From Bacteroidota bacterium (GTDB taxonomy: Bacteria > Bacteroidota > Bacteroidia > Bacteroidales > WCHB1-69): a stretch of 64,000 nt of DNA. Made by a program: the position numbers and the translations under genes. Under the pieces are notes generated by a model. It worked only from the letters and a program-made list of their open reading frames with translations, made no database searches and had not been told where the DNA came from. The DNA lies in assembly GCA_017860455.1 (NCBI GenBank), contig JAGDMF010000008.1, positions 9,742-73,741 on the forward strand, in the 5' to 3' direction. Positions within the stretch are counted from its first letter, which is position 1. Each line of letters begins with the position of its first letter. Below, in pieces: positions 2,801 through 30,448 of this stretch.

Positions 2801-5326
2801 ATGAAAATACGTAGAATAATTACTGCTTTGATATTAATCCTTGTGACTTGCAATGCAATGTCTCAAGACCATAAAGTGAAAATGGGGAATAAATATTTTG
2901 ATCAATTTGACTATGCCATGTCTGTAAAATATTATGAACCGGTCAAAGATAAATCGATTGAGGTTTTAAGAAATTTAGCTCATTCCTATTACATGATAGG
3001 CGATTGGGAAAATGCCAGAACAACCTACGAACAGATCTATACCCTTCCTCAAAAAACATTTGATGATGTTTGGAACTATTTCCTTGTTCTTCAACAATTA
3101 ACCCAATACGATAAAGCGATCTCCTTACTTCCTGAACTTACCAAATTGAATCCTAATGATATTCGGGTGAATTTGTATTTGAAAGCCGGAGATTACTATA
3201 AAAACCTACTTTCAGCTACCCCTAGGTATGAGTTGAAAAATCTGAAGATGAACTCTACCCATCAGGAGTTTTCTACTGCTATTATGGGAGATAAGGTGGT
3301 GTATGCCACTTCAAAAAATAAGTATCACCTTTTCAAAAGAGTGTGGGTGGGTAACCATAAAGGTTATTTGAATCTTTTTGTATCTAAAATACCTGAAGAT
3401 AAAGAGTTTAAATCCGGAAAACCATTGACTCGTGAAGCAAATAAGAAATATCATGATGGTCCCGTTACGTTCAATGAAGCAGGTAATTTTATGGTTTTGA
3501 CCAGAAACAATTACAAAAGCAAAAGTTCTGACGGTACCAGAAATTTACAACTTTTCTCCAGTGAATTAGTGGATGGTGAGTGGTCAAAACCCATTGCATT
3601 CCCTTACAATAATGCGGAATATTCAATTGGACAAGCTGCATTAACTCCCGATGGAAAATATATGTTCTTTGTTTCTGATATGCCCGGTGGAGTAGGAGGG
3701 ACTGACCTTTATGTTGTGGAAAGAAAATCTGATGGTAACTGGGGTCCGATCGTTAATTTAAAAGAACTCAATACTGAAGGAAATGAGATGTTTCCTGTTT
3801 ATCATGCGGATGGCGTTCTTTACTTCTCTTCTAACGGATATCCCGGATTGGGAGGTTTAGATGTTTTTGTAGTACCTGTTTCCGGTGAACAATACAATAT
3901 TTTTGGAAAACCTGAAAATATGGGAACCCCAATTAACGGCACTTACGATGACTTTGCCCTTACTTTTGATAAAAACCAAAAATTTGGTTACTTAACCTCT
4001 AACAGAGCAGAAGGTCAGGGGGATGATGATATCTATTATGTGAATGTGCTTCAACCTAAAAAGTTCAAAAAAATAATTCGTGGAGTTACTAAAACACCTG
4101 AAAATGTGATTGTTCCTAATGCTGAAGTATCCTTAACCCTTAACGGTAAACCGGTAGCTAAAACAGTAAGTGATGATCAGGGTAAGTTTGAATTTGTAGT
4201 TTCTCAACAAACCACTTTTGATTTGAAAGGGATCAAACCTCAGTATAGTGATGGATTAAATACCGCCAATACCGATGTTCCTGACGAGATTGTGTATTCA
4301 GATTTGGTTTTAGATCAAATAAAACCGTTTGGAGTTAAATTTGTCGTGAAAGACAAAGCAACTGATAAAGAGATTCCAAATGCGATGATTCACCTTAAAG
4401 ACAACATCACTTTTGAAGAAGATCAAAACCCAACCGATAATGCGGGTGCTTATTTAAAAGATTTACCTAAGGCTAAATTAAATGATAATATCAGCTATTA
4501 TCTCACTACTTCTCATCCTGACTATGTAACCAATACCCAAAATTACTATCAAAAATTGCTTAAATCGGGGATTTATGAATATATTATCTATTTGGAACCA
4601 CTTAAACAAACCCTTGTTTTAGGCGAAGATTTAGGAAAAAGATTCAATCTCAATCCAATCTATTTCGATTTGGATAAATCGGATATCAGACCCGATGCAG
4701 CCATTGAGTTGGATAAGATTGTTCAGATCATGAATGCATATCCTGATATTGTGATTGAGTTGGGATCTCACACTGACTGTCGTGCTCCTTATGAATATAA
4801 TATGGCTCTTTCAGAAAGGCGTGCCAAAGCATCAGCTGATTATATCAAACAAAGAATCACCAATCCAAAACGGATTTACGGTAAAGGATACGGCGAAACC
4901 CGTTTAGTAAATTACTGTGAATGTGAAGGCGATTACACCGCGATCTGTACAGAAGAACAACATCAGATGAATCGTAGAACTGAATTCAGAGTCGTAGCCA
5001 TTGGTGACAAAAAAGTGAAAATTACTGCTAATGAAACACCAAAAACAAATGCAGGTTTACCTCTCATCCCTAAAGGAAGATCGTTTGATGAAAAAGGTAC
5101 TTATTACAGGGTACAAATATTGAATTCCCCAAAACTTTTTGAATTAAAACCTGAAAATTTCAATGGATTTGATGGAATAGCCTACTATTTTTACAACAAC
5201 AGATACCAATATACAGTAGGTAAAAGTGCCAACAAAGAGGAGATGATTAAGCTTCAACAGCAATTGTTAAAGTTCTATCCCGAAGCATTTTTAGTCAAAT
5301 TTATCGACGGAATCAAACAAAAATAA
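2801..5326 (+). CDS. OmpA-family outer-membrane/peptidoglycan-binding protein (TPR + TolB-like repeats + OmpA_C + SPOR-like tail)
   Basis: OmpA_C core is present (NPIYFDLDKSDIRPDA ... LGSHTDCRAPYEYNMALSERRA ... NRRTEF). TolB-like propeller repeats occur in the middle. This is the third gene of the cargo/PorP/OmpA operon pattern. Confidence 0.85.
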   Translation: MKIRRIITALILILVTCNAMSQDHKVKMGNKYFDQFDYAMSVKYYEPVKDKSIEVLRNLAHSYYMIGDWENARTTYEQIYTLPQKTFDDVWNYFLVLQQLTQYDKAISLLPELTKLNPNDIRVNLYLKAGDYYKNLLSATPRYELKNLKMNSTHQEFSTAIMGDKVVYATSKNKYHLFKRVWVGNHKGYLNLFVSKIPEDKEFKSGKPLTREANKKYHDGPVTFNEAGNFMVLTRNNYKSKSSDGTRNLQLFSSELVDGEWSKPIAFPYNNAEYSIGQAALTPDGKYMFFVSDMPGGVGGTDLYVVERKSDGNWGPIVNLKELNTEGNEMFPVYHADGVLYFSSNGYPGLGGLDVFVVPVSGEQYNIFGKPENMGTPINGTYDDFALTFDKNQKFGYLTSNRAEGQGDDDIYYVNVLQPKKFKKIIRGVTKTPENVIVPNAEVSLTLNGKPVAKTVSDDQGKFEFVVSQQTTFDLKGIKPQYSDGLNTANTDVPDEIVYSDLVLDQIKPFGVKFVVKDKATDKEIPNAMIHLKDNITFEEDQNPTDNAGAYLKDLPKAKLNDNISYYLTTSHPDYVTNTQNYYQKLLKSGIYEYIIYLEPLKQTLVLGEDLGKRFNLNPIYFDLDKSDIRPDAAIELDKIVQIMNAYPDIVIELGSHTDCRAPYEYNMALSERRAKASADYIKQRITNPKRIYGKGYGETRLVNYCECEGDYTAICTEEQHQMNRRTEFRVVAIGDKKVKITANETPKTNAGLPLIPKGRSFDEKGTYYRVQILNSPKLFELKPENFNGFDGIAYYFYNNRYQYTVGKSANKEEMIKLQQQLLKFYPEAFLVKFIDGIKQK

Positions 5327-5332
5327 CACTAC

Positions 5333-5358
5333 AAGGCTGCTCACAAGGCAGCCTTTTT
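5333..5358 (+). terminator. Rho-independent terminator after the OmpA-family gene
   Basis: AAGGCTGC (5333-5340) pairs with GCAGCCTT (5348-5355) around a 7-nt loop, followed by TTTTT. It begins 7 nt after the stop codon. Confidence 0.8.
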
Positions 5359-5360
5359 CG

Positions 5361-5885
5361 ATTGCTCGATTAAGAAGGACTGGTGACGGGAGTCAGGTGA
5401 CGGGAGAAGTTCGAAGTTAAACGTTCGAAGTTCGACGAAAATCGCTATATTGTTCGTCTGCTGTCCGCCGACCGCCGTCTGCCGTCTTTTCTTCATTTTT
5501 CATTATTCATTCGTCTGCTGTCCGCCGACCGCCGTCTGCCGTCTTTACTTCATTTTTCATTTTTCATTTATAATTAGCTTATTAACACATTTTCTCATTA
5601 GCTTATTAATCAGGGCGTGCCGGCTTTCCCAGCCCACAATCCTACCCACGCCGTCGGGCTTGTTCCGGGGTCCGCTTCGCTTCCGTGCTTCGCACCGGCT
5701 TCGCCGCCCTCCAAAACCGCTATCGCGGTTTTTTTGGGTTTTGGCACAATATTTAAAAACATTTTTTTTGTTACACAGTGTCCCACAGTGTACTAATGTG
5801 TACCACAGTGTTTTGATTTTAAAAATTCGCACATTTTAACACTGTGATACCCCGTTTAACACCGTGAAACACTGAGAAATAAAAT
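5361..5885. repeat. Mosaic micro-tandem-repeat block A
   Basis: Contents in order: GGTGACGGGAG x2; GTTCGAAGTT x2; a 57-bp tandem duplication at 5452-5565 built from CTGCCGT/CCGCCGA and TTCATTW heptamers; TTAGCTTATTAA x2; GCTTCGC-type words in a GC-rich stretch; and CACAGTG/CACTGTG words. Confidence 0.9.
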
Positions 5886-5889
5886 ATTT

Positions 5890-5993
5890 CCTGACTTGTC
5901 CCTGTTAGTGCGGTAAAAATACTGTTTTTTTTGAAATAGGTGTTGATTATTAGATAATTAGCACCGCACTAAATTTATAGGGTACAAGTCAGG
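5890..5993. repeat. Long imperfect inverted repeat (~25-31-nt arms, ~48-nt spacer)
   Basis: CCTGACTTGTCCCTGTTAGTGCGGT (5890-5914) faces ACCGCACTAAATTTATAGGGTACAAGTCAGG (5963-5993). It lies downstream of minus-strand ORF 6078-6704. Confidence 0.8.
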
Positions 5994-6077
5994 AACAAAG
6001 TTTTTAAAGGATTTCAATGAAGCAAATCACTATTATTTCTAAGATAAATCGTTTTATAAAATCCTTTAGTGGACAGT

Positions 6078-6704
6078 TTATCTGTCATTTTTAATAATTC
6101 TAGATAAACAATCAATAAATATTAAAATATTTAATTGAGAATATAATATTCCGGATAATTGAATAAAACTTTTTTTTGAATTTCCATAATGAATATATAT
6201 CCGAAAAAACGGAAAATCCTTCGCCATGATTCTTTTATAGCTAAAATCACTAAATTCATCAAAATAAAGTTCTACTTCAGGTAATACTATTTTCCCAACA
6301 ATATTATTGTTTTTTATTTTAATTTTCTTTTTATAAAGATCAATTTCAAAGTCGTTATTATAATTCCTTAAACGTATTAAAAGCAAAATGAAAATTGTTA
6401 CTGATATGACTATTATATAAGCGATATAATTGTGATTTGATGCAAAAATGCTAACTAAAACAAAATATAAATAAATTAAAATACCAATGATTGTTAAAAT
6501 ATTAAAACGTGGTGGACATATACAAATTTTATGATCAGAAATATCAAGTTTATAACTAGGATATCCAACTTTTGCAATTTGTTCCAGTTTCTCTATCAAA
6601 ATTTGGGTATCTATGACATTATCCGGAACATATTCCATGTGTTCTTTACTGTATTCAATATTAGCGACTTCCTCATTGTACTTTTTAAAAAAATTTAAAG
6701 ACAT
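6078..6704 (-). CDS. Hypothetical membrane protein (two central hydrophobic helices)
   Basis: A 208-aa ORF with AT-rich coding-like composition and two hydrophobic stretches (ILTIIGILIYLYFVLVSIF, IAYIIVISVTIFILLLI). No family recognised. It is bracketed by repeat blocks A and B. Confidence 0.55.
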   Translation of the reverse strand: MSLNFFKKYNEEVANIEYSKEHMEYVPDNVIDTQILIEKLEQIAKVGYPSYKLDISDHKICICPPRFNILTIIGILIYLYFVLVSIFASNHNYIAYIIVISVTIFILLLIRLRNYNNDFEIDLYKKKIKIKNNNIVGKIVLPEVELYFDEFSDFSYKRIMAKDFPFFRIYIHYGNSKKSFIQLSGILYSQLNILIFIDCLSRIIKNDR

Positions 6705-6880
6705 TTTTAATAGAATTTAATAGTTTATTGAATTTGTATCATCTGTATAATACACTTTTATAATTTCCAAAAATACAAATTCTTTTCATATAAATTGGGA
6801 AAAAGTATATTTTCACATCAATTAAAGCAATGTGCTGGTCTGAAGTTATACTAATTAAACCAAGAAAGAAGGTAAAAATG

Positions 6881-7587
6881 AGCCGACTGCAGTCTGCCGT
6901 CCCTTTTCCCCAGTCTCCAGTCTCCAGTCCCCAGTCCTATAATGGAACGCGGATGCCACGGATTTTCAAACGCGGATTTAAACGGATTATAAAGTCGGCA
7001 GACGGCGGACGGCAGTCTGCTGTCCCTTTTTCCCCTGTCCCCAGTCTCCAGTCTTCTCAACCCGTAGGGTTCCATGTGAATAACCGTATGCAAGCTTGCG
7101 CAGCTTACGGAAGAATGAAGCCTCCAGTCCCCTTGTCCCCTGTCCCTTTCCCCTTGTCCCTTAATTAGAAAACTGATTCTCCCGACGCCCATTACAACTT
7201 TCCCGATTGGTATTACATAATTGCAGGAGGTTATTTTATAATTGCAGGAGGTTATTTTATAATTGCAGGAGGTTATTTTATAATTGCAGGAAGTTATTTC
7301 AAAATTGCAGGAGGCTATTTTATAATTGCAGGAGGTTATTTTAACTTTCCCGGTGGCTATTACAACATTCCCGGTGGCAATTATAAACTTTCGGGAAGCT
7401 ATTCCATAATTGCAGGAGGTTATTTTATAATTGCAGGAAGTTATTTTATAGTTGCAGAAGGTTATTTCAAAATTTACTGCCGTCTGCCGTCTGCCGTCTG
7501 CCGTCCATTCCCCTTTCTCCTTTCCCCTTCCCCCTTTCCCTTTCGCCCTTCGCCTTTCGCCTTTTGAGCACATTCAAAACATTTTGC
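6881..7587. repeat. Mosaic micro-tandem-repeat block B
   Basis: Contains CTGCCGT and its reverse complement GACGGCAG, CCAGTCY heptamers, an ~85-bp module also found at 15031-15112, the 21-bp array, and then CTGCCGT x4 followed by CCCTTTC/CCTTTCG heptamers. Confidence 0.9.
7191..7484 (+). repeat. Tandem array of 14 x 21-bp units
   Basis: Exact 21-nt register. Main unit is ATTTTATAATTGCAGGAGGTT. Variant units are ATTTTAACTTTCCCGGTGGCT, ATTACAACATTCCCGGTGGCA and ATTATAAACTTTCGGGAAGCT. There are no spacers between units. Confidence 0.95.
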
Positions 7588-7595
7588 TATATTTG
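7588..7595 (+). promoter_or_regulatory. Bacteroidota sigma-A -7 box (TAnnTTTG)
   Basis: TATATTTG followed by CAAA. Part of the 133-bp conserved unit upstream of ORF 7745. Confidence 0.6.
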
Positions 7596-7720
7596 CAAAC
7601 GAAATAACTAACACCCTTAAAGTTTTCAAAAGGTGCACAAATCTTCCAGAATAGGATGAATAGATACACTTGTTAAGGTTTTAAGGTGCATATATATAAA
7701 CGAGTTAGGTGCAATTTTAG
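7588..7720 (+). repeat. 133-bp conserved promoter-plus-leader unit, copy 1, ending in attC/attI-type core GTTAGGTGC
   Basis: About 93% identical by eye to 10493-10625. Contains TATATTTGCAAACGAAATAA, three direct AGGTGCA motifs (7631-7637, 7684-7690, 7707-7713) and GTTAAGG at 7672-7678. Confidence 0.85.
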
Positions 7721-7744
7721 GAAAAAACAGACTACACGATTGAC

Positions 7745-8131
7745 ATGAGAGATACAAATGAAAAGATGATAGAATTATTAGAAGTTTCTAAAAACAATGA
7801 GATTTATTCATCTTTGATTAAGCATAGAATAAGTGGAGAAGATTTGAAAATTAGATTTAGTATCGACTACGTTGACTACGGATATTTAAGAAATATTTTA
7901 GATTTCAGACCTTTTGAAAACACTGGATTTGCAAATTATCAGTATTTTTTTGCTTTGAGTTATCGAAAAGATTCAGAGAATACTAATTTGGCACACATGA
8001 AAATAAGAGTCGAACAAGAAGATAAGCATAAACAATATGAATTTAAGATTTCAAAGAAATATGTTTCAAACATACTTTGGTTTAATTCTTTGACTGATAA
8101 AACAGACGTTGAAAAAATGATTGAAAAATAA
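7745..8131 (+). CDS. Hypothetical protein (cassette ORF)
   Basis: A 128-aa ORF starting 33 nt after the GTTAGGTGC core and ending 6 nt before the next attC-like site. No family recognised. Confidence 0.55.
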   Translation: MRDTNEKMIELLEVSKNNEIYSSLIKHRISGEDLKIRFSIDYVDYGYLRNILDFRPFENTGFANYQYFFALSYRKDSENTNLAHMKIRVEQEDKHKQYEFKISKKYVSNILWFNSLTDKTDVEKMIEK

Positions 8132-8137
8132 AAAACA

Positions 8138-8236
8138 GCACCTAACAAGCGGTAAGCAGTAACAGGCAGATAGGTCGGCACAAACAGAAAATGCCTTCAC
8201 GTTAGCCTGCTACTACTACCGCCAGCCGTTAGGTGC
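8138..8236 (+). repeat. attC-like recombination site (99 bp)
   Basis: GCACCTAAC (8138-8146) is the exact reverse complement of GTTAGGTGC (8228-8236). The inner arms GGTAAGCAGTAACAGG and CCTGCTACTACTACC pair imperfectly. The outer boxes fit RYYYAAC / GTTRRRY. Confidence 0.7.
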
Positions 8237-8282
8237 CATTTGAAATCAGAATAAAAAACATATAAAATTAAAAAATAATAAA

Positions 8283-8924
8283 ATGAAAAAAATGATTAAA
8301 AACCTTTTGAGCCCTTTTACACCTCAGTTTATACAGAATATGTTGAAAAAAAGGGTTGACAAAAAACAGTTAAGGAAGTGGAATGAAAATGGTTGTCCTG
8401 TTCCTCCGCCTCACATTATCAAGCAGATGACCATACAAGAGTATCAAAAACAAACTCAATATAAAGTGTTAGTAGAAACGGGTACCTATATGGGGGATAT
8501 GGTTGAAGCGCAAAAGAGAATATTTAGAGCTATTTTTTCCATTGAATTAGGAATCGATTTGTTTAATAAAGCAACAAAAAGATTCAAGAACGATAAAAAT
8601 GTTACTATTGTTCAAGGGGATAGTGGAAAAATACTCCCCAAAATAGTATTAACACTAAACGAACCTGCCATATTCTGGTTAGATGGTCATTATTCAGCCG
8701 GGATCACGGCTAAAGGAGAGAAAGATTGCCCCATATTTGAGGAATTGGATGCCATATTTGACAGCCAGAAAAATAATCACATTTTACTCATTGACGATGC
8801 AAGATGTTTTAACGGTGAAGGAGATTACCCCACCATTAATCAATTGACAGATTATATAAAAAATAAAAATGAAAAATATCATGTTGAAGTTAAACACGAT
8901 ATTATTCGATATGTAATCAAATAG
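8283..8924 (+). CDS. Putative class I SAM-dependent methyltransferase (cassette ORF)
   Basis: [19 protein letters not shown] and FWLDGHYS motifs resemble the TylF/CmcI-like methyltransferase fold. The assignment is by eye only. No own TAnnTTTG box was seen upstream. Confidence 0.5.
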
Positions 8925-8949
8925 TAGTAAAATAAAGCGATGTACAAGT

Positions 8950-9110
8950 CTGCCGACCGCCGTCTGCCGACTGCCGTCTGCCGACCGCCGTCTGCCGACT
9001 GCCGTCTGCCGACTGCCGACCGCCGTCTGCCGACTGCCGTCTGCCGTCTGCCGACTGCCGACCGCCGTCCGCAATCTGCCGTCCTTTCCCCCTTCCCCTT
9101 TCCCCAGTCT
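8950..9110. repeat. Mosaic block C: ~19 heptamers CTGCCGW/CCGCCGT, then C/T-rich heptamers
   Basis: Direct reading: CTGCCGACCGCCGTCTGCCGACTGCCGT... followed by CCTTTCCCCCTTCCCCTTTCCCCAGTCT. Confidence 0.95.
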
Positions 9111-9150
9111 AATTAGCACAATGTTTTTTTGCCCTTTCAAAATATTGTAA

Positions 9151-9158
9151 TATATTTG
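9151..9158 (+). promoter_or_regulatory. Bacteroidota -7 box (TATATTTG) within a conserved promoter module
   Basis: The module TTTTGCCCTTTCAAAATATTGTAATATATTTGCAAA (9125-9163) recurs at 13900-13935. Confidence 0.55.
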
Positions 9159-9259
9159 CAAATCAATACTAATATAAAAAATACCGTTTTTCATCCAAAT
9201 ATTGAGAACTTACCGTAATATAAAGTTAAAATAGTAAGGATTATAAGCAACTTCCGTCA

Positions 9260-9919
9260 ATGCAAAAAATGAAAACAATAATAACAATAATCCTTCTGGC
9301 AATTTTGACAGCATGTTCCTACGAAAAAAAGGATTTGGAACAAACCAACGCTGTTGAAAATGTTGTAATAACTTCTACATCTACTTCGTCAATAAAACCT
9401 GTTTTAACAGGAAATGATTTGGTGGACAAAATGAATGAAATTAAAAATATACCATATAGAACTTTTCCATATAACTTGCAAGAAATTGACTCAATTACAT
9501 GGAACTGTGGTGACTCATTGTATTGGGAAATTGTACAACTTGGACAAGACGCAATTCCATATTTGATAACTAAGGTTCAAGACAGCACTATGACAGACAT
9601 TCAAATCCCATGTAGAGACATTAATCTGACTGTCGGGACAATTGCTTTTATCACTCTTAACGATATTATATCTATACCAAATGCTATTGTTTTTGAATGT
9701 CAATACGATGTTTTAATGTTAAACTGTGATTTTGAATTTCCGGTGGGACTACTTGAATACGTAAATACAAATCCACAAGAAGTACATGAAAAACTATTGA
9801 AGTGGTATGAAAAGTACGGAAAGACAATAAAAAAGAAAAAGCTTAAAAAGTCTGAGCAAAATGATTGTAAAAAAAAATATGGAATTAACTATGAATTTTC
9901 AATAAATTATAAATGGTAA
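9260..9919 (+). CDS. Hypothetical lipoprotein
   Basis: Signal peptide with lipobox (LAILTAC). Overlaps the dgkA start by 7 nt, suggesting an operon. Confidence 0.6.
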   Translation: MQKMKTIITIILLAILTACSYEKKDLEQTNAVENVVITSTSTSSIKPVLTGNDLVDKMNEIKNIPYRTFPYNLQEIDSITWNCGDSLYWEIVQLGQDAIPYLITKVQDSTMTDIQIPCRDINLTVGTIAFITLNDIISIPNAIVFECQYDVLMLNCDFEFPVGLLEYVNTNPQEVHEKLLKWYEKYGKTIKKKKLKKSEQNDCKKKYGINYEFSINYKW

Positions 9920-10293
9920 CAAGACAAAAATTTTCAATATTCAAAAGACTCAAAAGTTTTGAACATGCTTTTAATGGATTGCTAATTTTGATAAAAGAGG
10001 AGCACAATGCTAGAATACATTTATTCGCTACGATTTGTGTTATCTTTGCTGGAGTCTTATTTAAAATATCTTTGAATGAATGGATTGCAATTATTTTTTC
10101 AATTGGACTTGTATTTTGTCTTGAGATCATAAACTCTTCGATTGAAAATATAGCTGACTTTATATATCCGGAAAAGCATGAAAAGATAAAAAAAATTAAG
10201 GATTTATCAGCTTCTGGTGTGTTAATGAGTGCCATAACAGCAATGATAATTGGATTGATCATTTTTATTCCTAAAATAATCAAATTATGCTAA
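9913..10293 (+). CDS. dgkA: Diacylglycerol kinase / undecaprenol kinase family (DgkA)
   Basis: 126 aa with three hydrophobic helices. FEHAFNGL......E.N.RIH and E..NS.IE...D motifs are typical of prokaryotic DAGK. Confidence 0.8.
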   Translation: MVTRQKFSIFKRLKSFEHAFNGLLILIKEEHNARIHLFATICVIFAGVLFKISLNEWIAIIFSIGLVFCLEIINSSIENIADFIYPEKHEKIKKIKDLSASGVLMSAITAMIIGLIIFIPKIIKLC

Positions 10294-10426
10294 AAATAGT
10301 AAAAGATACAAAAAGATTAAACGAAACACATCGCTATTAAAAAATCACCATAAGAGATTAACTTTCACCATGTTTCGATGTATTGCAACCATTGAACGGA
10401 GCTTCCGACTAATAATTGATCATTAA

Positions 10427-10490
10427 CCTTTTGCCTTGTCCTTGGTTCTTTGCCCTTCGCCTTTTGCCTTTCGCCTTTTGCCCTTTTTTT
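10427..10490. repeat. Mosaic block D: CCTTTTG/CCCTTCG/CCTTTCG heptamers
   Basis: Direct reading: CCTTTTGCCTTGTCCTTGGTTCTTTGCCCTTCGCCTTTTGCCTTTCGCCTTTTGCCC. Confidence 0.9.
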
Positions 10491-10492
10491 TA

Positions 10493-10625
10493 TATATTTG
10501 CAAACGAAATAATATACACCCTTAAAGTTTTCTTAAGGTGCACAAATCTTCCAGAATGGGATGATTAGATACACTTGTTAAGGTTTTAAGGTGCATAAAT
10601 ATAAACGAGTTAGGTGCAATTTTAA
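10493..10625 (+). repeat. 133-bp conserved promoter-plus-leader unit, copy 2
   Basis: Same order of motifs as 7588-7720. The -7 box TATATTTG is at 10493-10500 and the GTTAGGTGC core at 10609-10617. The ORF starts 21 nt later. Confidence 0.85.
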
Positions 10626-10637
10626 AAATCGCTTTTT

Positions 10638-11555
10638 ATGAAGAAAATTCTAATTTTCATTTTTGTGATTATTTTTTGTAATATAAATGCTCAAAATGTG
10701 ACTACATCATTAAGAGAAGAAATATTGAATGGGAAAATAAAAATCATCAAACAAAAAATATATATGGAAGATAAAGTAGATACTATGCTTTATATTTTCA
10801 ATGATTTAGGATTATTAATAGAGGAAATTCAATTTAGAGTACACACTTTTTACTTTTATAACTCTAACAATCAAAAAATAAAATCAATTTCTAATTATTT
10901 GGAATATGGAGGTATTGAATCTCATACAAATGAATATTTTTATGAAGATGGAACTTTAATTAAGCATATTCTAAAATATCCTCCCTCTACGGACACAATT
11001 ACCCGATTTTTTGATTACTTTGTCACATATTATAAATATGATTTTAATAATCAATTGATTGAAGTTAGGAAATTTAATAAACACAAAAAAAATAAAACTG
11101 AAACTTTCTCAGAACATTATAAATATCAATATGATTCTTGTGGAAACAAAACAATTGAAGAAAAATTTGATTCAAATGGGAATAAATTAGAGATAATTGA
11201 GAAAAAATACATGAATAACATACTATTGGAAACAAATACATGGATGAAATTTGAAGGAGAAGATTTATATCTTAAAACTATTTATTTATATGATGATAAT
11301 GGAAATCTTGAAAGTCAAATTGAAATTGTTTATATGTATGGTAGTAAAACAGATATTGTTACTCAATCAACTACAAGTTATTTTTATGATGATCAACAAA
11401 GATTGATAAAAGTTATTGAACCTTGGCATCCAAATAATAAAATCACGACTTATAGCGATTTTGACATAAATGACAATTGGTTGCAAAAAATTATTATTGA
11501 CAACAACGGAAAAGTTAAAAAATATACACGTGAAATAGAATACTTCAATGAATAA
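10638..11555 (+). CDS. Secreted repeat protein (YD/RHS-like short repeats), hypothetical
   Basis: Signal peptide present. Recurrent Y.YD..GN... motifs (YQYDSCGNK, YLYDDNGNL, YFYDDQQRL). Shares the IFNDLGL.IEEI motif with ORF 43877-44293. Confidence 0.55.
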   Translation: MKKILIFIFVIIFCNINAQNVTTSLREEILNGKIKIIKQKIYMEDKVDTMLYIFNDLGLLIEEIQFRVHTFYFYNSNNQKIKSISNYLEYGGIESHTNEYFYEDGTLIKHILKYPPSTDTITRFFDYFVTYYKYDFNNQLIEVRKFNKHKKNKTETFSEHYKYQYDSCGNKTIEEKFDSNGNKLEIIEKKYMNNILLETNTWMKFEGEDLYLKTIYLYDDNGNLESQIEIVYMYGSKTDIVTQSTTSYFYDDQQRLIKVIEPWHPNNKITTYSDFDINDNWLQKIIIDNNGKVKKYTREIEYFNE

Positions 11556-11564
11556 AAAAACTGC

Positions 11565-11683
11565 TACTAACCAACGCTAAACCCCTTAAGGCCTTACTCC
11601 ACGTGACAAACATAAAAATAAAAAATAAACTAACACTCGCTGGACAATTGACGTCGATGCCCTCATGGGGCTTAGCGTCGGGC
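11565..11683 (+). repeat. attC-like site with degenerate outer boxes (119 bp)
   Basis: About 85% identical by eye to 12590-12711. The inner boxes ACGCTAAACCCC and GGGGCTTAGCGT pair with one mismatch. The outer boxes TACTAAC and GTCGGGC deviate from consensus. Confidence 0.55.
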
Positions 11684-11745
11684 TTTATGCACCATATAAT
11701 TGAATTACAGTGAACTTAAATCATTCTAATTTCATAAAAATTGTG

Positions 11746-11753
11746 TATTTTTG
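11746..11753 (+). promoter_or_regulatory. -7 box (TATTTTTG) for the VbhA/Fic pair
   Basis: Lies 24 nt upstream of the ATG at 11778. The GTG at 11757 is too close to be a plausible start. Confidence 0.5.
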
Positions 11754-11777
11754 TGAGTGATTTTTAACAATTACATA

Positions 11778-11999
11778 ATGTACAAAACTATAGACATTGA
11801 TCGCAAAAATTTGACCTTAATGGGTGTAAAATTTTCTGACTTAAAAACATTGGAAAATACAGCTAATGCTATTGGGACAAATATGTTTGAAGGTTTTGAA
11901 CCAACAAGAGAATTAATTCAACTTTATGTTGATTGGAAGACCGGAGTCATCACGGAATCTGAATTATTATCAACGTTATATACCATTTATGGAAAATAA
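11778..11999 (+). CDS. VbhA-type antitoxin of a class I Fic toxin
   Basis: Small ORF containing the inhibitory (S/T)xxxE(G/N) motif as TNMFEG. Its stop overlaps the Fic ATG (ATGGAAAATAA). Confidence 0.7.
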   Translation: MYKTIDIDRKNLTLMGVKFSDLKTLENTANAIGTNMFEGFEPTRELIQLYVDWKTGVITESELLSTLYTIYGK

Positions 12000-12585
12000 C
12001 TATCATTATTTAGATACAGAACTAAAATACACAAACAAAAATGGCTTACTTTATAATCTGGCTAACATAGAAGATGAAAAAATTCTATTAGTATTTGAAA
12101 GTTTAAAAGTTTCTAAAAGGATTGAAGAGTTAAATGAAAAACCAATAAAGATAAAGAATTCAGATTCTTTGCCAAAAATTCATTATTATTTATTTCAAGA
12201 TGTTTATGAATGGGCTGGCCAAGTCAGAGTTGTTAACATAAGCAAAAATGGGAAACCATTTTTCAATAAAGAGAGATTTCATATTGCATTTAAATATCTT
12301 GATACATTAATTTTTGAATATCGTAAAATTAGAAAGACAAATAAAGCTGAATTAGCTAAGAAATTAGCTGTAATATTGGAAAACATAAACTATCTTCATC
12401 CGTTTAGAGAAGGAAATGGACGAACTCAAAGAGAATTTTTGAGAATTTTAGCATTAGAAAAAGGATTACATTTAAATTTAAATCCGCCTGATAATAAAAA
12501 TGTTTATGAAAGGTATATGCAAGGTACAATTAAAAGTGATATTGGGATATTATCAGAGTTAATTTTAGAATTAATTGAAAAATAA
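11989..12585 (+). CDS. Fic family protein (AMPylation-type toxin)
   Basis: Fic motif HPFREGNGRTQREF is present. The start was moved to the in-frame ATG at 11989, which overlaps the antitoxin stop. Confidence 0.85.
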   Translation: MENNYHYLDTELKYTNKNGLLYNLANIEDEKILLVFESLKVSKRIEELNEKPIKIKNSDSLPKIHYYLFQDVYEWAGQVRVVNISKNGKPFFNKERFHIAFKYLDTLIFEYRKIRKTNKAELAKKLAVILENINYLHPFREGNGRTQREFLRILALEKGLHLNLNPPDNKNVYERYMQGTIKSDIGILSELILELIEK

Positions 12586-12589
12586 CGGT

Positions 12590-12711
12590 GCCTAACAAAC
12601 GCTAAACCCCTTATGGGCCTACTCCACGTGACAAACGATAAACAAAAATAAATAAACTAACACTCGCTGGCCAATTGACGTCGAATGCCCACACGGGGCT
12701 TAGTGTTAGGC
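12590..12711 (+). repeat. attC-like recombination site (122 bp)
   Basis: GCCTAAC (12590-12596) and GTTAGGC (12705-12711) both match consensus exactly. Inner boxes GCTAAACCCC and GGGGCTTAG pair with one mismatch. The site starts 5 nt after the Fic stop. Confidence 0.7.
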
Positions 12712-12749
12712 CTTAGCGAACATTATAAAACAACAACAATTCACAAGTT

Positions 12750-13817
12750 ATGAAATTAGAAGATCTTGGGTATAACGAGAAATTACAAAAATTAAGAGTC
12801 GAAAATAACCTTTCAGACTTTGAAATTGGAAGAGTGATCGCGGAACATAAGGAAAGATATATTGTAAAAACCGAAAACGGAGAATATGATGCCGAAATAA
12901 CTGGTAATTTGCGATTTTCAGCAAATAGCCGCATAGATTTTCCTGCAGTTGGCGATTGGGTTGCTTTGACAACCTATGATTCAGATTTTGCCGTAATCCA
13001 TAAAATAGTTCCGAGACTATCCTTAATTACAAGACAAGCCGTTGGTCATTATGGAGAGATACAAATAATTGCTGCAAATATTGATTATGCATTTCTAATT
13101 CAAGCCGTTGACCGGGATTTTAATGTCAATAGACTTGAAAGATACCTGACTATATGTTATTCATCTAAAGTAAAACCAATAATTGTATTAACGAAAACTG
13201 ATTTAATTAATGAACAAAAGCGTACTGAAATTATTGACAGTATTAAACAACGGATAAAAGAGATTGAAATTATTTCAATTAGTAACAAAACTCAGGATGG
13301 ATACGAAGCACTGAAAAGGAGTATTGTAAAAGGGAAGACCTATTGTATGCTTGGTTCTTCAGGTGTGGGTAAGTCAACACTATTGAACAATCTCTCCGGG
13401 GAAGCTGTAATGAGAACCGACACAATTAGCCAAAGTACCAATAAAGGAAGACACATAACAAGTCACAGGGAATTAATTGTTCTTGAAAGTGGTGGAATTC
13501 TTATTGACAATCCGGGCATGAGAGAAGTTGGGATTGCGGATACATCAGACGGATTAGAAACAACTTTTGATATCATTATCCGTCTTTCTCTAAATTGTAA
13601 ATTTAAAGATTGTACTCATACGCACGAAATCGGGTGTTCGGTAATTGAAGCAGTTGAAAAAGGGGAAATTGATAAAAAATCCTATGAAAACTATCTGAAA
13701 ATGGAACGGGAAAAAGCCCATTTTGAATCAACCATTGAAGAGAAACGAAAAAAAGATAAAGAGTTTGGGAAATTTATTAAAAACTACAAAAAAGATATCA
13801 AGAAAAATAAATACTGA
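12750..13817 (+). CDS. rsgA: Ribosome small-subunit-dependent GTPase A (circularly permuted GTPase)
   Basis: Motifs in order: LTKTDL (G4), then GSSGVGKSTLLN (G1), then DNPG, with a C-terminal zinc knuckle CKFKDCTHTHEIGC. Confidence 0.85.
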   Translation: MKLEDLGYNEKLQKLRVENNLSDFEIGRVIAEHKERYIVKTENGEYDAEITGNLRFSANSRIDFPAVGDWVALTTYDSDFAVIHKIVPRLSLITRQAVGHYGEIQIIAANIDYAFLIQAVDRDFNVNRLERYLTICYSSKVKPIIVLTKTDLINEQKRTEIIDSIKQRIKEIEIISISNKTQDGYEALKRSIVKGKTYCMLGSSGVGKSTLLNNLSGEAVMRTDTISQSTNKGRHITSHRELIVLESGGILIDNPGMREVGIADTSDGLETTFDIIIRLSLNCKFKDCTHTHEIGCSVIEAVEKGEIDKKSYENYLKMEREKAHFESTIEEKRKKDKEFGKFIKNYKKDIKKNKY

Positions 13818-13825
13818 TTTCTTAT

Positions 13826-13899
13826 GAGTATTCGAGCACATGAGCACATGAGCATTCGAGCATTCGAGTATTCGAGCATTCGAGCACATGAGCACACGA
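13826..13899. repeat. Mosaic block E: octamers GAGCATTC/GAGCACAT/GAGTATTC
   Basis: This is the reverse complement of the GCTCGAAT/GCTCATGT family seen in island 2. It is followed by the promoter-like module at 13900-13935. Confidence 0.9.
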
Positions 13900-13984
13900 T
13901 TTTGCCCTTTCAAAACATTATGGAATTTTTGCAAACTAAAATAATATTAAAATACACAGATACACTCATTATAATCACCCAAAT

Positions 13985-14893
13985 ATGAAAAATGGAGTAT
14001 TTATTTTATTTATATCATTGATATCCTTTATTTTAAAAGGACAAGAAAACGAAAAGTATTTTGTTTTCAATAATGATACCCTGCAAATATTACCACTCAA
14101 ATACAGTACCAAAAACGCTTCAAATAGTGATCATAGGTTATTTGACTCTATTCCTAATGGCATTTATATTGATATAATTGATAGTAATAGTTTTGATATA
14201 ATAAATATTGAAGATATGTCTTTAAATGGACCTTATCAATATTATGAAAATTATGAACTGGTTGAATCAGGCTACTATAAATATGGTTATAAATCCGGAA
14301 TATGGAAGAAATACAGAAAAGATAAAGTAGTCGCAATTTATTATTACAAAAACAGTTATCCCACGGAAAGTGAGACTTACTATGAAAATGGAAGTAAAAA
14401 ATATAGATCAATATTAATTGAAGAAGGTGAAAAATACAGAATAATCTTAACTACAAAATGGTATCCTAATGGAAACAAAGAAGAACAAGGGTTAATCAAA
14501 ATTGATTCTAAATGCAATTCATGCGTTGATTGTTGTAAATATAAATCTTGGACATATTGGCATGAAAACGGTAATGTAAAATCCATTGGAGAATATTTCA
14601 AAACTAAAGAAAATGGCACCTGGGTTTTTTATGATTCAACCGGTTTTATATTTGAAACAATTGAATATAAAAAAGGTAATGTAAAAAGTTTAACAAAATA
14701 TTACTCAGAGCTAAGAGAGAATCAATATATTGACGTAATAGAAGTATATAACAAGGAGAATAAACTTAAATCAAAAATAATTGAATATTATACTGAAGAT
14801 TTCTTGTTTATTGAAATTTATAACAGAAAAGGGAAATTAGTAAAAAGAAAAAAAGAAAGTCTATATTCTTCAAAAACTCATTTCACTATATAA
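13985..14893 (+). CDS. MORN-repeat-variant (YwqK-like) secreted protein
   Basis: Signal peptide present. Repeated G.Y..G.K.G.W..Y...G motifs (GYYKYGYKSGIWKKY; GEYFKTKENGTWVFY). Confidence 0.6.
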   Translation: MKNGVFILFISLISFILKGQENEKYFVFNNDTLQILPLKYSTKNASNSDHRLFDSIPNGIYIDIIDSNSFDIINIEDMSLNGPYQYYENYELVESGYYKYGYKSGIWKKYRKDKVVAIYYYKNSYPTESETYYENGSKKYRSILIEEGEKYRIILTTKWYPNGNKEEQGLIKIDSKCNSCVDCCKYKSWTYWHENGNVKSIGEYFKTKENGTWVFYDSTGFIFETIEYKKGNVKSLTKYYSELRENQYIDVIEVYNKENKLKSKIIEYYTEDFLFIEIYNRKGKLVKRKKESLYSSKTHFTI

Positions 14894-14918
14894 GCAACTC
14901 GTTCACCTCACCAGATTT

Positions 14919-15166
14919 CACGGATTATAAAGACAGCAGACAGCGGACGGCAGACGGCGGACGGCGGACGGCAGACATGTGAAATGGTTGAATAGTAGCA
15001 AAATACAAAACTGATAGCTCTTCGCCCTTTCTCCAGTCTCCAGTCCCCTGTCCTTTAATGGAACGCGAATGCCACTGATTTTCAAACGCGGATTTAAACG
15101 AATTATAAAGTCTGCAGACTGCAGTCTGCAGACTGCAGTCTGCTGTCTTATGAGCACACGAACACC
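14919..15166. repeat. Mosaic block F
   Basis: Contains GACGGCAG-type heptamers (reverse orientation), CCAGTCY heptamers, the ~85-bp module shared with 6910-6996, CTGCAGA/CTGCAGT words and GAGCACAC. Confidence 0.9.
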
Positions 15167-15169
15167 CGA

Positions 15170-15568
15170 TTAAAAGCTACTTCCTATTGTTGTATTGTTG
15201 TCTACTAAAATTTCATTTTCAATTTCAGCAGTTACCGGAATCGCTAGGGAGGTGTACATCGCCGGATTGAGTTGTGATGATGTCAACGGTAAATAGTAAA
15301 ATTTTACTCTTACTTTATTGCAATTTGCATTTAGCTCTACAACATCTGATACTCCTCCGCCTGTGGATACATCACCTAAAGCAATAGTTCCTAATTCCTG
15401 ATTATCCTGATACATGATTAAGGCCGCACTGTATAATGTACCGTCTAATCCTGGTACGTCACTTTCAATTGTGTGTTCGTTTTTTACATAAGCTGTTGTT
15501 TTGGGATCACTACATGATACTACAACTCCACAAATTGCTGCCAGTAAAATAACCATCATTTTTTTCAT
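15170..15568 (-). CDS. Hypothetical lipoprotein
   Basis: Signal peptide with lipobox (VVSCSD). 132 aa, no family recognised. Confidence 0.55.
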   Translation of the reverse strand: MKKMMVILLAAICGVVVSCSDPKTTAYVKNEHTIESDVPGLDGTLYSAALIMYQDNQELGTIALGDVSTGGGVSDVVELNANCNKVRVKFYYLPLTSSQLNPAMYTSLAIPVTAEIENEILVDNNTTIGSSF

Positions 15569-15618
15569 AATTCTTTCTTTTTTGAGTTAATAATTAGATC
15601 TATTTTTTTTTATTTTTT

Positions 15619-16680
15619 TTAAACAATAACGCCACTTCCGAAACATAACCTCTTTTCCCGGTCGTAAATTACCCCAAATTGTCCCGCTGCTATTCCGGAA
15701 ACTTTCTCTTTGGATTCAATCCGGTAAATATCCCCGATCCTTTTTAGAATTCCGGGTGTGAAATCGGGCGTGTGCCGGATCTTGAACTGAATCTCCTGCT
15801 CTTCAAAATCGCCCCAATTGGGATCTGTAATAAACTGAAATCCGGATAAATTGATCACATCACCATATTGTGTGGCAGGATCATACCCACAGGAAACAAA
15901 TAAAATATTCTCTTCAATATTTTTTTGGATCACAAACCATGGTCCTCCACTTAATCTTAATCCTTTTCTCTGGCCAATAGTGTGAAACCAATACCCATCA
16001 TGTTCTCCTAATATTTTCCCGGTTTCAAATTCAATAATTTTACCTTTTTTAACGCCTAAATATCTTTTAATAAAATCGTTATATTGAATTTTACCTAAAA
16101 AACAGATCCCCTGACTATCTTTACGGGTAGCGCTGGGTAAGTTTTCAGAAGTTGCAATTTGCCGTACTTCACTTTTTAAAAGATGTCCAATCGGAAACAT
16201 CAGTTTGGATAATTGCAGGGAGTTGATCTGGGCAAGAAAGTAGGTTTGATCTTTTACCCGGTCTTTGGCAGTGGATAAATAGAGTTGCTCCTCAATATTT
16301 GTAGTGGTGGCATAATGACCACTTGCAATTTTGTCAAATTCTTTGCCCCATTTTTGCTCAAAATACCCAAATTTGATCCATCGGTTGCACATCATATCCG
16401 GATTTGGAGTGAGTCCCCGTTTGACACTTTCAATCGTATAGGCGACCACATTATCCCAGTACTCTTCATGTAAACTAACCTCCTCCATCTTGAGGCCATA
16501 TTTTTTTGCTAAAAATTGAACCACAAACAGATCATCTTCGGTGGTGCACTGAATATTGCCGGCTTCATCTTCCATCCCGATTTTAATGTAAAATAGGGTA
16601 GGGTTGTAGCCCATCTCCTTGAGATTATAGACAATAACAGAGCTGTCAACTCCACCTGAAACCAATGCTGCTATCTCCAT
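15619..16680 (-). CDS. mnmA: tRNA 2-thiouridine(34) synthase MnmA
   Basis: PP-loop SGGVDSS at the N-terminus, plus DSQGICFLG and FHTIGQRKGL motifs. Confidence 0.9.
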   Translation of the reverse strand: MEIAALVSGGVDSSVIVYNLKEMGYNPTLFYIKIGMEDEAGNIQCTTEDDLFVVQFLAKKYGLKMEEVSLHEEYWDNVVAYTIESVKRGLTPNPDMMCNRWIKFGYFEQKWGKEFDKIASGHYATTTNIEEQLYLSTAKDRVKDQTYFLAQINSLQLSKLMFPIGHLLKSEVRQIATSENLPSATRKDSQGICFLGKIQYNDFIKRYLGVKKGKIIEFETGKILGEHDGYWFHTIGQRKGLRLSGGPWFVIQKNIEENILFVSCGYDPATQYGDVINLSGFQFITDPNWGDFEEQEIQFKIRHTPDFTPGILKRIGDIYRIESKEKVSGIAAGQFGVIYDREKRLCFGSGVIV

Positions 16681-16681
16681 T

Positions 16682-18121: not shown

Positions 18122-18172
18122 ACTACAATATTTTATCTTTATAAAATCAAGCTACAAAGATACAAAAAAAAA

Positions 18173-18207
18173 TCCCTGTACTCCATTTTGAGTACAGGGA
18201 TTTTTTC
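18173..18207. terminator. Bidirectional hairpin terminator between the receptor and the peptidase gene
   Basis: ATCCCTGTACTC and GAGTACAGGGAT form a 12-bp stem. An A-run lies upstream and a T-run downstream. My base count here may be off by 1 relative to the ORF track. Confidence 0.7.
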
Positions 18208-20659: not shown

Positions 20660-20684
20660 AAAGGTAGTTTTTATAGTGTGTCAA

Positions 20685-22007: not shown

Positions 22008-22116
22008 AACAAATTCTCCTTTGATTTAAAGGTTGAAAAAATAAAATATGGTGTTTTATAACAATGTTTTACAATGTTAAACTGTGTTTTTCTAAGAAAG
22101 AATGGATAGTTTTAGA

Positions 22117-24573: not shown

Positions 24574-24584
24574 AAAAAACGGAT

Positions 24585-26364: not shown

Positions 26365-26388
26365 AAAGCGTTTTTTTTTGCAAATATA

Positions 26389-27040: not shown

Positions 27041-27210
27041 ACATTTAACATTTAACATTTAACAAATAACATTTAACATTTAACAAATAACAAATAACAA
27101 TTATTCATTTTTCATTTTTCATTATTCATTTTGCATTTTTCATTTTTCATTATTCATTTTTCATTTTTCATTATTCATTATTCATTTGCTAATTCCCCTT
27201 TCGCCCTTTT
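27041..27210 (+). repeat. Mosaic block G
   Basis: ACATTTA/ACAAATA heptamers (27041-27100), then TTCATTW heptamers (27101-27188), then TGCTAATTCCCCTTTCGCCC. Confidence 0.95.
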
Positions 27211-27276
27211 TATCGAGTATAGAATAAAAAAATACAAAAAAAGTTAAAAAATACGAGTGAGGAAGAATAATTGTTG

Positions 27277-27284
27277 TATATTTG
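27277..27284 (+). promoter_or_regulatory. -7 box TATATTTG inside a conserved ~40-nt promoter module
   Basis: GAGTGAGGAAGAATAATTGTTGTATATTTGCAAAAAATT (27255-27293) is nearly repeated at 29083-29121. The box lies inside the track ORF, 14 nt upstream of the ATG at 27299. Confidence 0.6.
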
Positions 27285-27298
27285 CAAAAAATTCATCT

Positions 27299-29070: not shown

Positions 29071-29105
29071 TAGCCTTCTTATAGAGTATGGAAGAAAATT
29101 TGTTG

Positions 29106-30437: not shown

Positions 30438-30448
30438 GGATAACATTC

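Follow-up and report, generated by a model that had tools for sequence, protein, structure and literature searches.

Hypervariable composite blocks of 7- and 8-nt tandem repeats between accessory modules of an uncultured Bacteroidota genome: candidate recombination joints

The window analysed here, a 64,000-nucleotide (nt) stretch of contig JAGDMF010000008.1 from an uncultured Bacteroidota bacterium, carries two islands of accessory genes whose spacers hold ten blocks of short tandem repeats, and these blocks are the subject of this study. The core genes flanking the islands encode OmpA-like, PorP/SprF, MnmA, NusG-like and DNA-alkylation repair proteins. The islands themselves carry genes for DAGK, an RHS-like protein, VbhA and Fic, a paralogue of RsgA, an AAA_14/DUF4143 ATPase, AbiEi/Eii and hypothetical proteins. 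The PorP/SprF (type IX secretion system, T9SS) and CHU_C genes in the window identify the host as a member of the Bacteroidota, as does a 100% identical NCBI protein entered as 'Bacteroidetes bacterium'. The arrays are real, are confined to the island spacers and change far faster than the sequences that flank them, and modules are flanked on both sides by composite-block copies that share one orientation. In kind they are already known: they are long simple-sequence repeats (LSSRs) resembling the short tandemly repeated repetitive (STRR) sequences, here 7/8-nt satellites within dispersed composite spacer elements.

We located the tandem words with Tandem Repeats Finder (TRF) and ran a separate period scan with a block-shuffled control. 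All the words that an earlier note on this DNA had named in island 1 were recovered at their places, GCTTCGC only weakly, and a second island, at about 26.9-32.3 kb, holds like arrays (Table 1). The arrays fall into at least 14 heptamer and at least five octamer word classes, and those rich in GC have an excess of pyrimidines on the island 1 coding strand. In our scan, tracts of period 7 cover 574 nt and tracts of period 8 cover 151 nt; the scan gave zero for periods 5, 6 and 9-12, and zero likewise for block-shuffled sequence. The tracts occupy 15.8% of the 4949 nt of island intergenic DNA and occur in nine of the 13 island spacers of at least 100 nt, with none in the core intergenic DNA of the window (2014 nt, eight spacers) or in its coding sequence. 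Island spacers are several-fold longer than core spacers. The description of the island 1 blocks as built almost entirely of such words was overstated: by the union of TRF calls, tandem repeats account for about 63% of the six blocks and for 42-96% of individual ones. The rest consists of a GC-rich segment, a 50-nt core, degenerate 9-11-nt repeats and an array of 12 copies of a 21-nt unit.

Table 1. Positions of repeat blocks, word tracts, direct repeats and neighbouring features in the window.
Feature	Position	Strand	Composition or context	Method or value
Block 1	5361-5885		directly 3' of the OmpA-like gene terminator	TRF, inverted-repeat search
Block 1, (GAAGTTC)4	5406-5435			TRF
Block 1, 57-nt unit, two copies	5453-5568		each unit CGTCTGC-type words, then TTCATTW words	TRF
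Block 1, TTCATTW tracts	5492-5511, 5549-5569			TRF
Block 1, ATTAGCTTATTA words	5573-5608			TRF
Block 1, GC-rich segment	5614-5735		decayed GCGAAGC words	TRF
Block 1, GCTTCGC	5674-5704			TRF, weakly detected
Block 1, inverted 10-nt CACAGTG repeats	5766-5884			inverted-repeat search
Block 2	6881-7587		CTGCCGT words, (CCAGTCY)4, 50-nt core, (ACGGCAG)3, CCAGTCY and CCCTTGT words, 21-nt array, (CTGCCGT)4, (CCYTTYC/CCTTTCG)8; promoter TAnnTTTG at 7588
Block 2, facing complementary words	6885-6902 and 7007-7024
Block 2, CCAGTCY tract	6907-6937			TRF
Block 2, reverse complement of CTGCCGW/CCGCCGT	6996-7015			TRF
Block 2, 21-nt (3 x 7) higher-order array	7217-7474		ATAATTGCAGGAGGTTATTTT	TRF, 12.3 copies
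Block 2, CCTTTCG-type tract	7508-7564			TRF
Leader, first copy	7582-7719		directly after TAnnTTTG promoter
attC-like hairpin	8133-8241	+	R'' ACCTAAC, R' GTTAGGT	single-stranded DNA fold z = -6.5
Block 3	8948-9110	+	(CTGCCGW/CCGCCGT)19.4, CCYTTCC words, CCAGTC, TAATTAGC; promoter TAnnTTTG at 9151
Block 3, CTGCCGW/CCGCCGT array	8948-9083			TRF, 19.4 units as assembled
Block 4	10427-10490	+	CCTTTTG/CCCTTCG/CCTTTCG words; TAnnTTTG at 10493, then 139-nt leader
Block 4, CCTTTCG-type tract	10449-10486			TRF
Leader, second copy	10487-10624		directly after TAnnTTTG promoter
attC-like hairpin	11554-11687			single-stranded DNA fold z = -2.6
attC-like hairpin	12579-12715			single-stranded DNA fold z = -3.4
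Block 5	13826-13899	+	GAGCATTC/GAGCACAT octamers, then near-consensus promoter
Block 5, octamer tract	13826-13896		GAGCATTC/GAGCACAT	TRF
Block 6	14919-15166		(ACGGCAG-type)6.6, spacer, (CCAGTCY)2, 50-nt core, (CTGCAGA/T)5.7
Block 6, facing complementary arrays	14930-14969 and 15110-15149
Block 6, reverse complement of CTGCCGW/CCGCCGT	14931-14976			TRF, 6.6 units
Block 6, CCAGTCY tract	15030-15045			TRF
Block 6, CTGCAGA tract	15109-15148			TRF
Block 7 (island 2)	27041-27210	+	(ACATTTA/ACAAATA)9, (TTCATTW)12, ATTTGCTAATT, CCCCTTTCGCCC; then promoter cassette and AAA_14 gene
Portable promoter cassette	27237-27293	+	...CGAGT..GAAGAATA..TGTTGTATATTTGCAAAAAA
Block 8	28566-29066	+	starts with CCTTTCGCC word right after AAA_14 stop codon; further (AATGCTCG)3, CACTGTG words, (GGCAAAG)2, (TGCTCNNN)5, (TTCATTW)7.6, ATTTGCTA-type octamers
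Block 8, (CAGATGRAA)3	28587-28617
Promoter cassette, second copy	29084-29122		before AbiE module
Block 9	30452-30580	+	(GAATGCTC)4.6, (TTCATTW)8.4, ATTTGCTA-type octamers; between convergent genes
Block 10	32076-32272	+	(CTCGAATG)7.4, (TTCATTW)6.7, ATTTGCTA-type octamers, CCCCTTTCGCCCTTCCCC, ATTAGCTTATTA/ATTATCAC words
Direct repeat, 111 nt	6914-7024 and 15030-15140	+, +	CCAGTCY array, 50-nt core, ACGGCAG array	89%
Direct repeat	7534-7719 and 10448-10624		array, promoter and leader	86.6%
Direct repeat	27098-27293 and 28982-29122			72-80%
Direct repeat	28939-29065 and 30456-30580			88%
Direct repeat	30452-30581 and 32090-32220			89%

When the blocks are reduced to word classes, they share a word order in which the unit counts differ from copy to copy: CTGCCGT-type, GAATGCTC or ACATTTA words come first, followed by TTCATTW, ATTTGCTA-type, CCTTTCG-type, CCAGTCY and ATTAGCTTATTA words. 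In self-comparison the composites appear as dispersed plus/plus repeats of 110-190 nt and 80-92% identity that flank modules in island 1, in island 2 and in a second genome, L017 (OW818690.1, GC 0.32), which a genome scan for the TTCATTN-TTCATTTGCTAAT junction had returned. The 111-nt pair in island 1, for example, brackets an 8-kb run of plus-strand cassettes, and composite orientation is unchanged at tandem, divergent and convergent junctions. L017 displays a like grammar and brackets modules in the same manner (an IS3 transposase, an AAA_14/DUF4143 ATPase and hypothetical genes), with promoters abutting its arrays. Three of its non-repeat anchors are homologous to the window, namely a GC-rich segment with TAATAAGCTAATGAG...(AAATGAA)3, the 50-nt core and the CACAGTG block. 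The blocks are internal arrays of dispersed composites, not free-standing microsatellites.

The GC-rich segment of block 1 matches L017 7528-7623 at about 75-80% identity, and the words adjoining it are kept there too. In this genome of about 33% GC, the segment ends in a terminator-like hairpin on the plus strand; a structured RNA was considered and rejected, with z of about -1 on both strands, and Rfam returned nothing relevant for the window at the gathering threshold or for 5300-7700 in E-value mode. The 50-nt core is made of ACGCGGAT/CACGGAT words with a period of about 11 and has copies at 6941-6988 and 15057-15104 in the window, at 1069-1118 in L017 and at 3001-3048 in L120. A BLAST search of plasmids with the blocks and the leader/attC region gave this core on Runella slithyformis plasmid pRUNSL01 as its sole match; there it forms a perfect hairpin with 19-nt arms, and the arrays are absent. 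The core appears to be a widespread intergenic motif of Bacteroidota.

As the note had claimed, every junction in island 1 is occupied, three of them by attC-like hairpins and the others by blocks. These hairpins are long and imperfect, are closed by RYYYAAC...GTTRRRY pairs and lie 3' of the open reading frames (ORFs) for a 128-aa protein, a 305-aa protein and VbhA/Fic. Thirty window ORFs scanned against Pfam include no recombinase, transposase, reverse transcriptase or integron integrase (intI), and because an integron integrase is missing from this set, we label the putative sites a CALIN-like array (cluster of attC sites lacking integron integrase) in a Bacteroidota genome. The two 139-nt leaders are 93% identical; each contains three direct AGGTGCA boxes and one inverted copy, ends in GTTAGGTGC directly before the first promoterless ORF of a short attC-bounded cassette run, and looks like an integrase-less attI-like platform. 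The leader at 7582-7719 was tried as an attC site and rejected, as neither leader has a hairpin fold.

The claim that the blocks commonly sit just upstream of a TAnnTTTG promoter is borne out for half of them: five of the ten end within 80 nt of one, or six if the near-consensus promoter at about 13925 is counted, whereas chance would give about 0.08 per block. The array tracts themselves are found 5' of the -33 element or between convergent genes. In island 2 a portable promoter cassette separates blocks 7 and 8 from the genes that follow, and in relatives it precedes both AAA_14 and AbiE modules; 3' of its copy next to block 8 lie AbiEi/Eii. Block 10 abuts the stop codon of the DNA_alkylation gene. 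The octamers of block 5 are the reverse complement of the GAATGCTC words of island 2. Words facing their own complements, another feature proposed earlier, occur as two pairs, one of 18 nt (89% complementary) and one of 40 nt (78%) formed by the outer arrays of block 6. Higher-order periods of 14, 21 and 28 nt run through the array of block 3 (8.1 copies at 90% for period 14, 4.8 copies at 87% for period 28). The 21-nt array of block 2 was rejected as coding sequence, since its plus-strand frame, open as IIAGGYF..., has no start codon, and the minus-strand ORF over it is a read-through of stop-free arrays.

Contigs of relatives were found via homologues of the island 2 ATPase with 92-99% identity, and the orthologous NusG-AAA_14 spacer, which contains block 7, was compared across six lineages, all of them metagenome assemblies. 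The flanks and the promoter cassette of this spacer are conserved, and its arrays are not. The window has nine ACATTTA/ACAAATA units, 12 TTCATTW units and one ATTTGCTA word; L121, whose adjacent gene is 98.5% identical to that of the window, has six, seven and four, and L127 (adjacent gene 90.9%) has ten, about ten and four. Between L122 and L123, whose AAA_14 genes are 99.45% identical, (AAAAGTA)n is replaced by (AAAAGTT)n throughout the array, and the word runs 3' of it differ. Because units and counts differ at 98.5% and 99.45% identity of the adjacent gene, no sequence at this locus evolves faster than the arrays, whose units change in number and are also replaced in concert. Slippage-driven variation, as suggested in the note, is supported by the differences in unit number and unit sequence seen between close relatives in an orthologous spacer.

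The gene content of island 2 varies as well, with at least five arrangements among the window and its relatives. In the window, NusG is followed by AAA_14, AbiE, a 441-aa gene and DNA_alk. A JGI contig (no DNA sequence) has AAA_14, AbiE, 198 nt and DNA_alk, so that exactly the 441-aa module is missing. In L122 and L125, AAA_14 and DNA_alk are separated by 44 nt of CCTTCGC-type words; homology to the window halts at 28577 and restarts at 32269, so that 28578-32268 (3.7 kb) is missing. CCTTTCGCC-type words lie at both edges of this indel, and one run of the same family is left in L122 and L125. L121 carries a different minus-strand gene after AAA_14, and its homology to the window ends at 28620, within a (CAGATGRAA)n tract of 9-nt units. 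In L126, AAA_14 is followed by a word run, a promoter cassette and a second AAA_14, the end of the contig being 94% identical to its own start; an excised circle was rejected for this contig since the match is only 94%, which points to a tandem second copy. The contigs of relatives whose OmpA-like protein is 95, 81 and 76% identical end 36-95 nt after the OmpA-like stop codon, and at this left edge of island 1 the contigs of two of the three relatives enter arrays built of different words (AATGTGCT in L130, TTAACTC/TTATCTC in L129). The proposed link to gene-cassette turnover is borne out to this extent: in island 2, the junctions of module presence/absence and of duplication lie in or at arrays.

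Such arrays might be created or distorted by de Bruijn graph assembly, a concern that the note itself had raised. The source is a MEGAHIT k141 contig; its longest arrays, of 134-147 nt, are about as long as the assembler's k of 141, so their copy numbers are to be read as assembled, and contigs of relatives often end in arrays. However, an independent Logan assembly, SRR10861756, from another sample and assembler, is 100% identical to the window across 13688-26680, including blocks 5 and 6, and array edges are identical elsewhere. Another Logan contig is an exact match to 29036-30476 and on both sides breaks off at arrays, in one case 25 nt into block 9, as expected of a k=31 assembler that reaches a real dispersed repeat. 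Contig k141_1863330 of ENA assembly ERZ27276616 is identical to the window over about 21 kb except for one 15-nt indel at about 5711, where the window lacks 15 nt (CATCCCTCACGCGCA) within the GC-rich segment of block 1. The same architecture recurs in ENA, JGI and NCBI assemblies of relatives and in a 3.47-Mb single-contig chromosome, and we regard an assembly artefact as extremely improbable.

What, then, do the blocks do? Because they bracket modules and because of where the junctions fall in relatives, we hold, with modest confidence, that their most likely part, perhaps an incidental one, is that of joints at which recombination turns over accessory modules. Slipped-strand mispairing and unequal exchange would alter the arrays themselves, as suggested by the 14/21/28-nt periods of the 19-unit array and by the two-word segment duplicated as a 57-nt unit. 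Recombination within or between blocks would then delete, duplicate or swap modules, a step that the junction positions in relatives suggest. The blocks would in this way act as recombinase-independent joints for cassette-like turnover, beside true attC-type cassettes in island 1, and their joint function may be incidental instead of selected.

Several observations weigh against such a role. The edge words of the 3.7-kb indel are homologous over only about 9-18 nt, below the usual need of RecA-type exchange, and insertion and deletion are indistinguishable at 86-89% divergence. The JGI contig that lacks the 441-aa module carries three extra genes at the window spacer 34712-34887, which is array-free, and L019 (86% MnmA identity) loses synteny after MnmA without arrays; because rearrangements also occur in this manner, arrays are not necessary for turnover. 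Neither an excision product nor within-sample heterogeneity was seen in the assembly comparisons, and short-k assemblers break at repeats and may mis-join across them. Neither slippage nor a role as joints accounts for the preference for periods 7 and 8.

The main rival is that the arrays are a passive by-product that slippage creates in any long unconstrained spacer; as such spacers occur mainly at the seams of horizontally acquired modules, the arrays would mark sites of turnover and contribute nothing to it. The greater length of island spacers, the presence of heptamer arrays across the clade at low density, the indels without arrays, the short homologies at junctions and the complete turnover of words at a fixed site all agree with it. 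Yet independent local slippage would not be expected to yield blocks that are copies of one ordered composite common to several loci and two genomes and that keep one strand orientation across junction types, and three independent rearrangement junctions (in L121, L122/L125 and L126) lie in or at word tracts. We consider a passive origin unlikely, though the strongest of the alternatives. A regulatory role, in which the words act as cis elements that tune or insulate adjacent promoters, is improbable. It could take the form of upstream elements, binding arrays for a heptad-reading protein, C-rich rut-like or hairpin terminators that stop read-through, or a unit-number rheostat as at Haemophilus hmw. 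The promoter proximity of five or six of the ten blocks, repeated in L017, speaks for it, as do the pyrimidine bias of the GC-rich words on the island 1 coding strand, the differences in unit number between strains and the facing arrays, which from their complementarity could form long hairpins. The arrays, however, sit upstream of the -33 element instead of between promoter elements or in a 5' untranslated region (UTR), blocks 9 and 10 lie at a convergent junction or inverted relative to the gene, and words are freely replaced at one site while the promoter cassette is kept, as would not be expected if a protein bound them by sequence; among the window ORFs scanned, none encodes a candidate for such a protein.

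The strict 7/8 period across unrelated words could also reflect dedicated machinery, that is, a recombinase, transposase, template-repeat polymerase or reverse transcriptase that recognises or makes the words, possibly an enzyme shared horizontally among Bacteroidota, Cyanobacteria, Beggiatoaceae and phages. Some of the words turn up in several phyla and in phages (CTGCCGT, TTCATTW with ATTTGCTAAT, CTGATAG/TAACTGA-type), CCCCAGT is STRR1, and block 8 resembles an insertion with a GCCTT(C)TTATAGA direct repeat on its flanks. Against this, the window ORFs tested include no recombinase, transposase or reverse transcriptase, the cross-phylum matches were found with the pattern itself, so that ascertainment and in some cases chance may explain them, and higher-order periodicity and variant units favour slippage over templated synthesis; we find such machinery very improbable. 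The boldest extension, for which we see little prospect, would make the 7/8-nt satellite joints a general integrase-independent cassette platform whose arrays a dedicated, horizontally transferred enzyme makes or recognises, and would trace the strict 7/8-nt period and the partly common vocabulary to that enzyme. It is equally doubtful that this platform would span uncultured Bacteroidota and possibly Cyanobacteria, Beggiatoaceae and some phages, and a long shot that promoter-bearing modules would be excised, duplicated and captured at its joints. That it would exist side by side with attC-type cassettes under the control of integrase-less attI-like leaders, and might even supply them, seems to us just as far-fetched.

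Heptamer satellites (STRR/LSSR) have been known since 1990 and have no assigned role; the STRR heptamers of cyanobacteria include CCCCAGT. The window arrays share with them head-to-tail units of about 7 nt in runs longer than chance, an intergenic location and several distinct abutting words per spacer. They differ by mixing in octamers and 21-nt higher-order units, and by sitting in ordered composites that bracket promoter-bearing modules and mark indel junctions, neither of which, to our knowledge, has been shown for STRR. One word, CCCCAGT/CCAGTCY, equals STRR1. In the strict sense of Mazel et al. (1990), STRR belong to heterocystous cyanobacteria, whereas the host here is an uncultured member of the Bacteroidota.

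Mosaic intergenic repeats are also familiar as families such as pneumococcal BOX, enterobacterial BIME/REP and neisserial NIME/dRS3, the last with 'minimal mobile elements'. Like the window blocks, BOX, BIME and NIME are dispersed multi-copy composites with ordered sub-modules and variable internal copy number; they are intergenic and can carry or adjoin promoters and hairpins, and NIME are linked to exchangeable cassettes via homologous flanks. Their sub-modules of 20-45 nt set them apart from the 7/8-nt satellites here. Integron attC cassettes and the arrays both lie at junctions of small accessory genes in the same island, but an attC site has R'' (RYYYAAC) and R' (GTTRRRY) closing an imperfect bottom-strand hairpin, which the arrays lack, and the array-bounded modules carry their own promoters whereas the attC cassettes here are promoterless. 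Nor do the blocks resemble miniature inverted-repeat transposable elements (MITEs), which have terminal inverted repeats, target-site duplications and uniform length: no terminal inverted repeats bound the blocks among the inverted pairs found, and block lengths differ with unit number. Clustered regularly interspaced short palindromic repeat (CRISPR) arrays have 24-48-nt repeats with unique spacers, unlike the contiguous 7-8-nt units here. The 7-bp repeats upstream of Haemophilus influenzae hmw1A and hmw2A (PMC8262952, PMC12721329) are examples of phase-variable contingency simple-sequence repeats (SSRs). Such SSRs, or variable-number tandem repeats (VNTRs), have in common with the arrays 7-nt units near promoters and unit-number polymorphism between close strains; contingency tracts, however, are placed where unit number switches expression (inside an ORF, between the elements of a promoter or in the 5' UTR), whereas the arrays lie at none of these places, and in the arrays many different words abut.

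The nearest precedent lies in the same phylum, so that the statement that Bacteroidota have no described equivalent was too strong. In its account of intergenic repeats, MacGregor 2015 (PMC4679880) describes mixed heptamer assemblages, several arrays per long spacer, in the Flavobacteriia Gramella forsetii, Aequorivita sublithincola and Elizabethkingia anophelis. According to that account, the repeats were missing from the shorter spacers of close relatives, broke assemblies so that relatives' contigs end in them, and 'suggest a role in gene rearrangement'. The report mentions them in passing, is anecdotal, with a few spacers covered, and centres on TAACTGA; the window words differ and are not in its supplement. 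The same source summarises Mrazek 2007 to the effect that, among the long SSRs of repeat-rich prokaryotes, those with heptanucleotide units form the most frequent class. Our literature searches beyond MacGregor 2015 found nothing more specific. Added here are the composite grammar, the bracketing of modules by direct repeats, the measured hypervariability and the mapped module junctions.

The note also suggested that the repeats may be lineage-specific, which is only partly right. Their vocabulary and grammar are partly common to one other genome, L017, and a bias towards heptamers is clade-wide at low density: across related Bacteroidota loci totalling 936 kb, tandem repeats again favour period 7 and no other, with about one-twentieth of the window density. 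Among MnmA-based metagenome loci, the closest relatives (86%) already lack downstream synteny. CTGCCGT arrays, moreover, occur in GC-rich phages. A scan of viral contigs for three copies of CTGCCGT matched mostly unrelated GC-rich phages, and in one family of phage contigs (GC about 0.6; L100, L101, L103, L106, L107, L109, L111, L112 and L115) (CTGCCGT)n forms an intergenic VNTR of 4-9 copies whose position is the same in each. In other viral contigs the word is found in mosaics with AGCTGAW words, and in L104, L108 and L114 it forms facing inverted arrays about 130 nt apart with an AT-rich spacer between them. Three copies of GAATGCTC and the TTCATTN/ATTTGCTAAT junction had no matches in the viral contigs.

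The locus gives heptamer satellites a concrete and testable association: in one environmental Bacteroidota lineage they are the fastest-evolving sequence, and they occupy the boundaries at which modules for defence and toxin-antitoxin functions (AbiE, Fic/VbhA, the AAA_14 ATPase) are gained, lost or duplicated. If the arrays promote these events, they would provide a simple, recombinase-free route to accessory-gene shuffling; if they are only passive, they would still be useful high-resolution strain markers for metagenomics. In practice, array spacers break short-read assemblies, and gene callers make spurious ORFs of them because the arrays are stop-free. In the public contig these ORFs are 6851-7573 (minus strand, 240 aa), 8784-9194 (minus strand, 136 aa) and one of 54 aa over 13826-13899. 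The 240-aa 'protein', used as a census query, gave no matches, probably owing to composition-bias filtering.

At block 8, a mosaic of about 490 nt (28582-29075) looks like an insertion in the promoter cassette when compared with the simpler junctions of L126 and L123; the GCCTT(C)TTATAGA direct repeat flanks it, and no other block has such a flanking repeat. In L123 (2890-3140) and L124 (2350-2600) the promoter cassette before the AbiE module contains a palindromic MITE-like insert of about 230 nt with the terminal inverted repeat ATTGTCCGATAAAAATAT, which is absent from the window. Outside the islands, cumulative GC skew reaches a minimum at about 38.9 kb, where the genes switch from the minus strand (15-38.9 kb) to the plus strand (39-48 kb), and this minimum may reflect a local strand bias or a replication landmark.

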